Source: Escherichia coli
Lineage (GTDB): Bacteria; Pseudomonadota; Gammaproteobacteria; Enterobacterales; Enterobacteriaceae
Strand: one strand, 5' to 3'
NCBI RefSeq assembly: GCF_024700885.2
Contig: NZ_CP117016.1
DNA length: 64,000 nt
Position 1 is the first letter of the stretch, and each line of letters starts with the position of its first letter. Positions 55,577-56,965 of the stretch are shown in pieces. Under the pieces are notes generated by a model. The model did not search any database, was not told the origin of the DNA, and saw nothing but the letters and a program-made list of their open reading frames with translations. The position numbers and the translations under genes were made by a program.

Positions 55577-55768
55577 AGTTTAACCCAATAAAAATAAAGT
55601 AATTATACATTTGTTTAATACCACTCTCTTCTTACGTGCGCAAGCGTCTTATAAAGCAATAAAGTTTTTGCCAGCCTATTACTGATAAGAGTATTGTAAC
55701 GTGGCAGAACATTTTACTGTCTGTATCTATAAATTATATCAATGGATTTTTTAATTCAGGGAATTTTT

Positions 55769-56965
55769 ATGGCTCAAGTTATTAATGAAATGGATGTTCC
55801 GTCCCATTCTTTTGTTTTTCATGGTACAGGTGAGAGATATTTTCTTATTTGTGTGGTGAATGTGTTGTTAACGATTATAACGCTAGGTATCTATTTACCA
55901 TGGGCATTAATGAAATGTAAGCGTTATCTTTATGCTAATATGGAAGTTAACGGACAACGATTTTCTTATGGAATAACCGGTGGGAATGTTTTTGTTAGTT
56001 GTCTTATTTTTGTTTTTTTCTATTTCGCAATCTTAATGACAGTGTCAGCAGATATGCCGCTTGTTGGTTGTGTTTTGACTTTGTTACTGTTGGTTTTGCT
56101 TATATTTATGGCAGCAAAAGGACTGCGTCATCAGGCCTTGATGACCAGTCTCAACGGCGTAAGATTTAGTTTTAATTGCTCTATGAAAGGGTTCTGGTGG
56201 GTAACCTTTTTCTTGCCGATTTTAATGGCCATTGGGATGGGGACTGTTTTCTTTATCTCGACAAAGATGCTACATGCCAATAGTTCAAGTAGTGTTATTA
56301 TATCTGTGGTTCTGATGGCAATAGTTGGTATTGTTTCCATTGGTATTTTTAATGGTACTTTATATAGTCTGGTAATGAGTTTTCTCTGGAGTAATACCAG
56401 TTTCGGTATACATCGTTTCAAGGTGAAATTAGATACTACATATTGTATAAAATATGCCATTCTCGCATTTTTAGCTTTATTACCTTTTCTCGCTGTTGCT
56501 GGTTATATTATCTTCGATCAAATATTAAATGAGTATGATAGTTCTGGGTATGCAAATGATGATGTTGAGAATTTACAGCAGTTTATGGAAATGCAACGTA
56601 AAATGATAATCGCGCAGTTAATTTATTATTTTGGGATTGCTGTTAGCACCAGTTATTTAACGGTGTCGTTGCGAAATCATTTTATGAGCAACCTGTCACT
56701 GAATGATGGGCGTATTCGTTTTCGCTCAACTTTAACGTACCACGGTATGCTTTATCGCATGTGTGCGTTGGTGGTGATATCCGGGATTACGGGTGGTCTG
56801 GCTTACCCACTGCTGAAAATATGGATGATTGACTGGCAGGCAAAAAATACGTATTTGCTGGGCGATTTGGATGACCTTCCTTTAATCAATAAAGAAGAAC
56901 AACCAGATAAAGGCTTCTTAGCCAGTATTTCTCGGGGAGTTATGCCTTCTTTACCATTTCTGTAA
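55769..56965 (+). CDS. yjgN: Inner membrane protein YjgN (DUF898)
   Basis: Start moved to MAQVINEMDVP...; polytopic membrane protein in an AT-rich segment. Confidence 0.8.
   Translation: MAQVINEMDVPSHSFVFHGTGERYFLICVVNVLLTIITLGIYLPWALMKCKRYLYANMEVNGQRFSYGITGGNVFVSCLIFVFFYFAILMTVSADMPLVGCVLTLLLLVLLIFMAAKGLRHQALMTSLNGVRFSFNCSMKGFWWVTFFLPILMAIGMGTVFFISTKMLHANSSSSVIISVVLMAIVGIVSIGIFNGTLYSLVMSFLWSNTSFGIHRFKVKLDTTYCIKYAILAFLALLPFLAVAGYIIFDQILNEYDSSGYANDDVENLQQFMEMQRKMIIAQLIYYFGIAVSTSYLTVSLRNHFMSNLSLNDGRIRFRSTLTYHGMLYRMCALVVISGITGGLAYPLLKIWMIDWQAKNTYLLGDLDDLPLINKEEQPDKGFLASISRGVMPSLPFL

Follow-up and report, generated by a model that had tools for sequence, protein, structure and literature searches.

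The AT-rich yjgN gene of Escherichia coli: probably a gene of an ancestral locus, orphaned from an M48 protease partner and carrying a swapped-in allele

Is yjgN of Escherichia coli a foreign gene inserted between its neighbours, or an old resident of its locus? The gene encodes a DUF898 membrane protein and lies between yjgM and valS in the stretch analysed here, 64,000 nucleotides of the E. coli contig NZ_CP117016.1 (the window, in what follows). An earlier note on this DNA had called its organisation cassette-like, on account of its AT-rich sequence and of terminators on both sides. According to our comparison of loci, it is probable that yjgN belongs to an ancestral locus, that it was orphaned from a pair with an M48 protease and that the allele found in the window, type I, was swapped in. 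The genes that define the locus are the following.

55073-55576, minus strand: yjgM, GNAT N-acetyltransferase gene, divergent to yjgN (Pfam Acetyltransf_1, 2e-19; RefSeq annotation)
55769-56965, plus strand: yjgN, DUF898 polytopic inner-membrane protein (Pfam; RefSeq start)
57019-59874, minus strand: valS, convergent to yjgN (list of open reading frames; annotation)

This part of the window is E. coli chromosome: positions 55400-57100 match strain MLI114 at 100% identity and the majority of other complete genomes at 95-99%. Here yjgN is an intact chromosomal coding sequence for 398 amino acids, of the type I allele. RefSeq names it 'yjgN: YjgN family protein' in the 100% identical MLI114 locus, with a start that corresponds to 55769. 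An in-frame ATG at 55742 was considered as the start and rejected, as it has no Shine-Dalgarno sequence and the type II allele carries a TAG there that closes the frame. Both the gene name and the DUF898 membrane family, as given in the earlier note, are confirmed by the RefSeq annotation and by a match to Pfam PF05987 of 163.9 bits (gathering cut-off 28). This match covers residues 22-378 and profile positions 2-315 of 336, a significant hit across most of the length that makes the window YjgN a member of the family. DUF898 is the only Pfam family that YjgN matches, and no NCBIfam model matched it. The protein retains the DUF898 core motif, FxFxG...N..LLT..TLGIY.PWA......Y, and the motif of its N-terminal core hairpin is complete (F17, G19, F25, N31, L34, T38, G40, Y42, W45, A46 and Y53); these core residues are invariant or nearly so in a 65-sequence alignment and over 89 homologues. 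The gene is therefore an already annotated one, and what had been observed about it is largely right except for the terminator on the yjgM side, discussed below.

The order of genes around yjgN is widely conserved. The arrangement in which yjgM and yjgN diverge and valS faces yjgN is kept in Escherichia albertii, Salmonella, Citrobacter (C. amalonaticus), Superficieibacter, Leclercia, Pluralibacter, Enterobacter and Kosakonia, and the same order with one extra gene is found in Siccibacter, Rahnella, Erwinia, Brenneria, Pectobacterium, Vibrio and Enterovibrio. About 30 further loci of Enterobacterales and Vibrionales also show the order yjgM-yjgN-valS. Moreover, a DUF898 gene sits at the yjgM-valS site in all the loci of these two orders that were examined. 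The view that the place of yjgN between yjgM and valS would predate the split between Vibrionales and Enterobacterales is thus strongly supported.

A different origin could be imagined, in which yjgN and its AT-rich leader are a horizontally acquired island gene, silenced by H-NS, inserted between yjgM and valS and insulated by terminators. Composition points that way, as the GC content of yjgN (0.37) and its GC content at third codon positions (GC3, 0.35) are far under those of the flanks. So do the flag for H-NS in the spacer (PMC3946193), the position of the type I allele, which is phylogenetically foreign to Escherichia, and the insertion sequence (IS) elements that have targeted the spacer in other strains. 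However, a DUF898 gene is present at exactly this site from Vibrio to Salmonella, which indicates that an allele changed at an ancestral locus and that nothing was inserted. The yjgM side of yjgN has no terminator, and no integrase, repeats or mobile vector were found. Of three signs of horizontal acquisition, low GC content and, for type I, a phylogeny incongruent with the species are present, while absence of the gene from the syntenic site in relatives is not. We consider such an insertion very unlikely. The term cassette-like thus fails for a foreign insertion, given a synteny conserved from Vibrio to Salmonella, and holds for an exchangeable allele block of about 1.45 kb whose common form is phylogenetically foreign. 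The earlier note had itself named core-like composition together with conserved synteny as the outcome that would speak against it; the gene order is indeed conserved, but the composition is not core-like and the AT-richness stands.

Plasmid and phage vectors for yjgN were considered and rejected, since the tblastn matches are chromosome fragments with valS, holC and lptFG. Database labels are unreliable at this point. NZ_AP023207.1 (pMTY18781-2), for example, is a 94-kb circular 'plasmid' record that holds the chromosomal run pyrL...yjgN-valS-holC-pepA-lptFG, including essential genes, and yjgN also occurs in several multi-megabase 'plasmid' records and in short 'phage' records, all of them pieces of chromosome. 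Insertions at the locus were seen in individual strains: yjgN of strain SCPM-O-B-7615 is split by two copies of ISKpn26, and strain CE2050 carries an IS200/IS605 tnpA in the yjgM-yjgN region. In Shigella sonnei, IS21/IS1 elements have been described between yjgN and yjgM, at the edge of an inversion of about 20 kb (PMC12795559).

If the locus is old, what did it contain? We counted M48 linkage over 71 DUF898 loci from alpha-, gamma-, delta- and epsilon-proteobacteria, outside the group of Escherichia, Salmonella, Citrobacter, Enterobacter and Kosakonia. An M48 open reading frame (ORF) on the same strand starts less than 200 nt from the DUF898 stop in 69 of the 71 loci, with a median offset of about -12 nt, that is, overlapping it. 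In one of the two loci without it, the contig ends 160 bp past yjgN. The partner protein is composed of an N-terminal DUF7092 domain, a transmembrane (TM) segment and a Peptidase_M48 domain with HExxH, and its nearest named relatives, BepA and LoiP, reach 43-61 bits against family cut-offs of 365-570. In Rahnella, Erwinia, Brenneria, Siccibacter, Vibrio and Enterovibrio, the yjgN-M48 pair lies between yjgM and valS. Clustering of 880 flanking ORFs from the 69 loci gave lineage-specific neighbours only and no third conserved neighbour of the pair. These data strongly support an ancestral state in which yjgN would have been the first gene of a two-gene operon, with a DUF898 gene followed by that of a DUF7092-TM-M48 zinc metalloprotease. 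We also observed, in a metagenome-assembled genome of the distant gammaproteobacterial group Pseudohongiellaceae, a GNAT acetyltransferase gene directly after the DUF898-M48 pair; its product does not cluster with YjgM at E 1e-8, and the adjacency may be a coincidence.

In the window this partner is missing. The spacer between yjgN and valS (56966-57018), which is the site of the protease gene in M48-retaining relatives, measures 53 bp and holds a terminator, and no DUF7092/Peptidase_M48 gene lies downstream of yjgN on the same strand. Spacers at M48-less loci range from 41 to 550 bp. When nine enterobacterial M48 partners were searched by tblastn against 14 yjgN-valS spacers, no relic of the protease gene came up (best E 0.04, short stretches). 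The 550-bp spacer of Superficieibacter electus was considered as an M48 pseudogene and rejected, as it consists of three units of about 140 bp with GC-rich palindromes (GCCGGGTAAGGCGAAGCCGCCACCCGGC) that resemble repetitive extragenic palindromes and bacterial interspersed mosaic elements (REP/BIME-like). In a neighbour-joining (NJ) tree, all M48-less YjgN proteins fall into one clade (100% bootstrap), and a single ancient deletion is thus the simplest account. It is strongly supported that the clade of Escherichia, Salmonella, Citrobacter, Enterobacter and Kosakonia would have deleted the protease gene and so orphaned yjgN.

The orphaned proteins have also lost residues that protease-linked proteins conserve. 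We compared, over 89 homologues, 51 alignment columns that are at least 85% conserved in 68 M48-linked homologues. M48-linked proteins keep on average 48.3 of these columns (minimum 40), Salmonella keeps 34-35, and types I and II of E. coli keep 33 each; the window YjgN (33/51) thus lacks this second mark of the two-gene module as well. Replacements across the M48-less clade include W28C, R49K, G77S, N334L/V and R352W. In the window YjgN, N334 has become L and R352 has become W, both of them positions of the C-terminal hairpin that are 100% conserved in M48-linked proteins.

Such losses raise the question of whether yjgN is still a working gene. It is not a pseudogene: purifying selection on it is relaxed yet real, and some function is kept. 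The ratio of non-synonymous to synonymous substitution rates (dN/dS) is 0.18-0.37 within type I, 0.12 between two E. coli type II alleles and 0.15 between E. coli type II and E. albertii, with 0.015 for valS and 0.05 for yjgM as comparison. Of 5426 genomes, 4589 with type I and 793 with type II gave full-length matches. One could still argue that yjgN became functionless after the loss of its partner and is drifting to a pseudogene, its AT-richness and divergence being purely neutral. This would account for the loss of 18 of the 51 family-conserved residues, for fast evolution and for a GC3 fallen towards mutational AT bias. It would also fit the truncated forms that are frequent in some lineages, with clusters of 247 aa and 218 aa that have hundreds of member sequences, including Shigella sonnei, the IS disruptions that occur, and a tolerated yjgN::tet insertion (PMC9544173). 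However, dN/dS values of 0.12-0.37 within and between alleles are well under 1, and the ORF is intact and full-length in about 99% of the 5426 genomes. Moreover, yjgN is intact in every M48-less genus examined, and the beta-strands and terminal hairpins are 54-85% identical between alleles that are 42% identical overall. We therefore judge a decaying, functionless yjgN to be decidedly unlikely.

The same locus exists in E. coli in two strongly diverged forms, delimited as follows.

55526-56970, no strand assigned: dimorphic haplotype block of about 1.45 kb (blastn segments; alignments)

A sensitive blastn of 55577-56965 against the 5426 complete genomes placed 4629 genomes at 95-100% identity and 796 at 60-80%, with none between and one without a match. 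Type I, the form of the window, thus makes up 85% of complete genomes and type II 15%. Type II is found, for instance, in strains A33, ABU 83972 and E2348/69, where YjgN has 395 aa and is 42% identical to the window protein. The block takes in the promoter spacer, the whole of yjgN and ~24 codons at the start of yjgM; its DNA is about 69% identical between the types, compared with 93-95% in the flanks. Its edges are sharp, as flanking homology stops at 55525, inside yjgM, and resumes at the terminator, valS being common to both forms. The first ~24 codons of yjgM (about 55505-55576) differ by haplotype, with the DNA breakpoint at ~55525 within them. In type II strains the N-terminus of YjgM reads MNVVASPALRLRKLTVADNPAIAHV, that of type I differs, and the proteins are identical downstream.

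Relatives of the two alleles point to different histories. The identity of type II YjgN to its relatives falls in steps, from 99% within E. coli to 92% for other Escherichia, 86% for E. albertii and 64-66% for Salmonella. For type I there are no relatives between 89% and 65%, the latter in Superficieibacter. In the NJ bootstrap tree, type I groups with Superficieibacter (100%), within the clade of Citrobacter amalonaticus, C. sedlakii and Intestinirhabdus, and type II groups with E. albertii and other Escherichia, then with Salmonella and Leclercia (100%). According to these data, it is strongly supported that type II is the vertically inherited Escherichia allele, which looks ancestral. Equally, there is strong support for type I being a xenologue closest to Superficieibacter, which would have arrived by homologous replacement of the ~1.45-kb block from an unsampled enterobacterial donor. 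The crossovers of this replacement would have fallen inside yjgM and at the terminator. In a preprint on sequence type 131 (ST131), yjgN is one of eight genes listed as acquired by clade C and missing from ST131-B0; this 'gain' is probably the same allele difference scored as gene gain.

Two deeply diverged alleles at one locus, with no intermediates, could also be kept by diversifying or frequency-dependent selection, for example if phages, colicins or contact-dependent toxins exploited YjgN as an inner-membrane entry factor. Rapid evolution of the family in every lineage, even with M48, and a yjgN that is non-essential (yjgN::tet) would agree with such an arms race. Nevertheless, overall dN/dS is 0.15-0.34 and not above 1, and the most variable parts are long TM hairpins that probably face the lipid, with periplasmic tips of 2-6 residues that offer little surface. 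The relationships of type II mirror those of the species and type I clusters with a different genus, a pattern that fits a single replacement better than an ancient trans-species polymorphism. Finally, the defence models of PADLOC-DB gave no match for YjgN of type I or type II, the M48 partner, YjgM or the YjgL-like protein encoded nearby, and our literature search found no link of yjgN to toxin or phage entry. Of the explanations considered here we hold this one to be the least probable, and a single replacement of an allele at an ancestral locus is preferred.

How far does base composition bear on this replacement? That yjgN and its 5' region are AT-rich, as previously noted, is plain from the figures: GC is 0.370 in the coding sequence (GC3 0.351) and 0.292 in the 192-bp spacer 55577-55768, against 0.52 in yjgM and 0.55 in valS (GC3 0.655). 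Windows of 1197 bp over the 64 kb have a mean GC of 0.507 (sd 0.046), among which yjgN falls at the 3rd percentile, as one of just three such AT-rich stretches within the 64 kb. Across loci, GC3 of yjgN is about equal to that of the flanks if M48 is present, and it falls 0.1-0.3 below theirs at M48-less loci. The depression is strongest in the type I yjgN of E. coli (0.35 against 0.66 in valS). The GC3 of type II yjgN is 0.43, and consequently low GC is partly a trait of the orphaned lineage and does not come from foreign origin alone. AT-richness is best explained by three factors acting jointly, namely weak selection on a gene that is poorly constrained and probably repressed by H-NS, a membrane-protein composition rich in Phe, Ile and Leu and, for type I, inheritance from the donor.

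The earlier description also held that terminators bracket yjgN on both sides. The elements that bear on this are given below.

55038-55071, both strands: bidirectional intrinsic terminator between convergent rraB (plus) and yjgM (minus) (hairpin fold)
55577-55768, no strand assigned: divergent yjgM/yjgN promoter spacer (GC 0.29)
55613-55644, no strand assigned: conserved spacer motif GTTTAATACCACTCTC...GCGCAAG (nine enterobacterial spacers aligned; window aligned with A33)
55668-55697, plus strand: sigma-70-type promoter-like site for yjgN, TTGCCA-18-TATTGT (consensus scan)
56975-56998, both strands: bidirectional intrinsic terminator between convergent yjgN (plus) and valS (minus) (hairpin fold; U-tracts)

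On the valS side the terminator was borne out. The predicted hairpin at 56975-56998 is stable and GC-rich and lies between an A-tract and a T-tract, as expected of a bidirectional terminator. It folds at -21.8 kcal/mol on the plus strand and -24.0 on the minus strand (z -4.7/-5.8), and none of 200 shuffles was as stable. The stem has 10-11 bp with 7 GC pairs, and both strands have a U-tract, the one on the yjgN strand (CGUUUUC) being weaker than the strong one on the valS strand. This terminator is the same in the two E. coli haplotypes and forms the right-hand border of the dimorphic block. On the yjgM side no terminator separates the two genes, since the spacer 55577-55768 has no significant hairpin (z -1.2). 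The sole terminator on that side is the hairpin at 55038-55071 (-16.3 kcal/mol on the plus strand, -18.2 on the minus strand; z -3.6/-3.5; U-tracts past the stem on both strands), which lies beyond the 3' end of yjgM and does not adjoin yjgN. Thus, the two terminators bracket the divergent pair yjgM/yjgN and not yjgN alone.

As yjgM and yjgN diverge, the spacer 55577-55768 is their shared promoter spacer. Genomic systematic evolution of ligands by exponential enrichment (SELEX) located constitutive RpoD promoters of both genes in it, and the table of that study carries the flag 'HNS' for the spacer (PMC3946193). The hexamers of our promoter-like site are the same as those that Shimada et al. 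2014 list as the yjgN promoter (PMC3946193). The motif at 55613-55644 is located ~40-70 bp upstream of the yjgM start and reads on the minus strand TGGTATTAA, resembling an extended -10 element. In the form GTTTAATACCACyCTC...GCGCAAG it is kept in both E. coli haplotypes, E. albertii, Superficieibacter, Pluralibacter and strain RIT691, with the rest of the spacer unalignable. Judging from the resemblance to an extended -10 element, it is probably the promoter of yjgM or an operator. Rfam gave no family at threshold over 54900-57200, and its sub-threshold matches were to terminators only.

What kind of protein does yjgN encode? Further information was obtained from an AlphaFold2 model, run on the 65-sequence alignment (predicted local distance difference test, pLDDT, 93.5; predicted template modelling score, pTM, 0.88). 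The model contains five helical hairpins, each flanked by short strands with (R/H)F.(F/Y) that assemble into a sheet on a single face. Both terminal hairpins, the first at 21-56 and the last at 324-359, are short in the model (17 and 14 residues) and look re-entrant, with a conserved GIYxPWA turn. Identity of the two E. coli alleles is 54-85% in the terminal units and strands and 26-34% in the long TM hairpins. No Lys or Arg is found at the hairpin tips, against 11 such residues on the strand side. Ten long DUF898 homologues were scanned, and they carry N-terminal cytoplasmic FHA or MJ0042-type zinc-ribbon domains, or a tandem DUF898 (744 aa); these fusions hint at a signalling or scaffold role. 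No natural DUF898-M48 fusion was seen among the ten, in a scan that was not aimed at fusions. From the distribution of Lys and Arg together with the FHA and zinc-ribbon fusions, the sheet and the N-terminus are expected to be cytoplasmic. In YjgN, five helical hairpins would then enter the membrane from the cytoplasmic side, held together by a beta-sheet in the cytoplasm. No solved structure resembling this fold was found.

The function of yjgN was given as unknown, and experimentally this is still true; genomic context adds a lead, the lost M48 protease partner. In the literature found, yjgN figures as an item in a table, as a linked marker or as a non-specific SELEX peak, and a search for 'b4257' gave nothing relevant. 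One such table comes from a screen of C. elegans dauer formation that included a yjgN mutant (PMC5153853), and the marker is the yjgN::tet insertion, used as a neutral linked marker (PMC9544173). From the genomic context we propose, as a tentative idea to which we give clearly less than even chances, that YjgN is a subunit that docks the M48 protease at the membrane or regulates it. The cytoplasmic DUF7092 beta-domain of the protease and its TM helix would pack against YjgN. The C-terminal hairpin may be the region of contact with the protease, because invariant residues were lost there after deletion of the protease gene. In E. coli, YjgN would persist without its partner in a reduced or re-purposed role and would be dispensable in the laboratory.

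It is tempting to go further. DUF898 might be a structurally new, pseudo-five-fold class of scaffold in obligate complex with a dedicated DUF7092-M48 protease, the two making up a widespread and undescribed module of membrane proteolysis in proteobacteria. E. coli yjgN would then be partner-less and re-purposed, with two xenologous alleles possibly because a phage or toxin exploits YjgN. We regard this extended version as doubtful. Alternatively, YjgN could be a stand-alone channel or transporter, in which the pseudo-five-fold bundle with its two re-entrant hairpins forms a permeation pathway and the adjacency of M48 is incidental or regulatory. We find a channel or transporter unlikely, and we keep the protease partnership as our working proposal.

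Several points weigh against the history of orphaning and allele swap set out above. The median of (100 - YjgN identity)/(100 - ValS identity) is 2.6 with M48 and 10.5 without, but saturation confounds such ratios, the two sets cover different ranges of divergence, and at matched ValS divergence the acceleration is ~2-fold; an orphan yjgN that would have evolved ~2-4 times faster relative to valS is strongly supported. Identities of YjgN and of the M48 partner over 54 species pairs correlate with r 0.97 (partial r 0.91 given ValS), a correlation that could reflect co-transfer of adjacent genes and that is drawn from non-independent pairs. Kosakonia cowanii and Enterobacter sp. Bisph1 are without M48 yet keep W28, R49, N334 and R352, so that the residue replacements do not map simply onto loss of the protease. 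These two YjgN branch first in the orphan clade and the other orphans have all replaced the four residues. Thus, either the losses of residues postdate the loss of the protease, or the partner was kept elsewhere in these two. We know of no M48 proteases in E. coli other than HtpX, BepA, LoiP and YcaL, and our scan for M48 genes in E. coli covered the 64-kb window and the retrieved loci.

The tree and the models call for similar caution. The tree was built by neighbour-joining on fast-evolving sequences, and the donor of type I is unsampled, its best match being just 65% identical. The extreme AT content of type I could come from an unsampled low-GC donor and not from relaxed selection. As for the physical partnership, an AlphaFold2 model of a Rahnella YjgN-linker-M48 fusion from 19 paired sequences reached pLDDT 80 and pTM 0.73. 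This pTM exceeds the expectation for two independently placed halves, which is suggestive, but it is a proxy read without interface or predicted aligned error, and AlphaFold2 tends to pack TM helices anyway.

Other genes of the neighbourhood, at lower coordinates than yjgM, are listed here; beyond valS come holC and then pepA.

51516-53387, plus strand: yjgL-like gene
53445-54449, minus strand: ornithine carbamoyltransferase gene (argI in K-12; labelled argF by the Prokaryotic Genome Annotation Pipeline, PGAP)
54611-55027, plus strand: rraB

The yjgL-like gene has a GC content of 0.33 and is more AT-rich than yjgN. It contains a tandem repeat at 52071-52356, an 18-bp unit present 15.9 times that encodes hexapeptides of the LNN(S/P)Q(E/D/K) type, and its product has weak, sub-threshold Pfam matches (SopA central domain, E 0.009). 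Strain A33 is without this gene and has upstream an arginine deiminase cluster, arcA-arcC-argF-yfcC, instead. The third AT-rich stretch of the window comprises the 1197-bp windows that start at 11151-11751, with GC below 0.40. It holds an ORF at 11683-12594 (plus strand, 303 aa) that matches no Pfam family; this ORF lies between ytfJ and a gene for a cysQ-like inositol monophosphatase and is probably ytfI.

The value of these observations lies in a route to the function of a K-12 gene without known function and of a widespread DUF898-M48 pair, and we consider their interest modest. Function is best sought where the pair is intact, in Rahnella, Vibrio or Sinorhizobium, and not in E. coli. In turn, E. 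coli, Salmonella and their relatives provide a natural experiment in which the partner is deleted, and W28, R49, N334, R352 and others become candidate contact or functional residues. In pangenome studies, the two alleles with their 42% identity will be counted as genes gained or lost, when the event is really an allele swap at a fixed locus. A YjgN structure would be new, with no solved homologue.

How does YjgN compare with known systems? Within PF05987, the 'YjgN family protein' for which E. coli K-12 YjgN is the namesake, the window protein is a full-length member with the core motif kept. It belongs to a derived, partner-less enterobacterial subclade in which 18 of the 51 protease-linked conserved residues are replaced. 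With the DUF898 plus DUF7092/Peptidase_M48 operon of Rahnella, Erwinia, Vibrio, Sinorhizobium and Shewanella it shares a homologous DUF898 part and, in Enterobacterales and Vibrionales, the same yjgM-valS site; the window differs in having no M48 gene and just 53 bp with a terminator before valS. To our knowledge this operon has not been described before, and in the searchable literature mentions of DUF898 were rare and none concerned a DUF898-M48 operon. We take the N-terminal membrane domain of the urate oxidase PuuD to be DUF989 (PF06181), and the name 'DUF898' that was given to it is presumably a misprint and not a lead to YjgN. That name appears in a paper on PuuD (PMC4562309).

The lost partner has the same HExxH catalytic domain as the M48 proteases HtpX, BepA, LoiP and Ste24 and differs from them by its N-terminal DUF7092. 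HflKC, the partner of FtsH, offers an analogy for YjgN as a polytopic docking or regulatory partner of a membrane protease; this is a hypothesis about role and not about membership, as YjgN has no sequence or fold similarity to the SPFH scaffolds of FtsH-HflKC. Closer in sequence, DUF4234 (PF14018) and DUF6693 (PF20403) give sub-threshold or overlapping Pfam matches on the GIY..W hairpin unit of DUF898 homologues, which suggests that the three families may have a common building block. DUF4234 and DUF6693 have one or two hairpins, whereas YjgN has five and a beta-sheet. Finally, the dimorphism of the locus resembles xenologous allelic replacement and xenogeneic silencing by H-NS, with a foreign AT-rich allele at an ancestral locus, sharp recombination edges and an H-NS flag at the promoter. 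Unlike added islands, it is a one-for-one swap of an orthologous gene.

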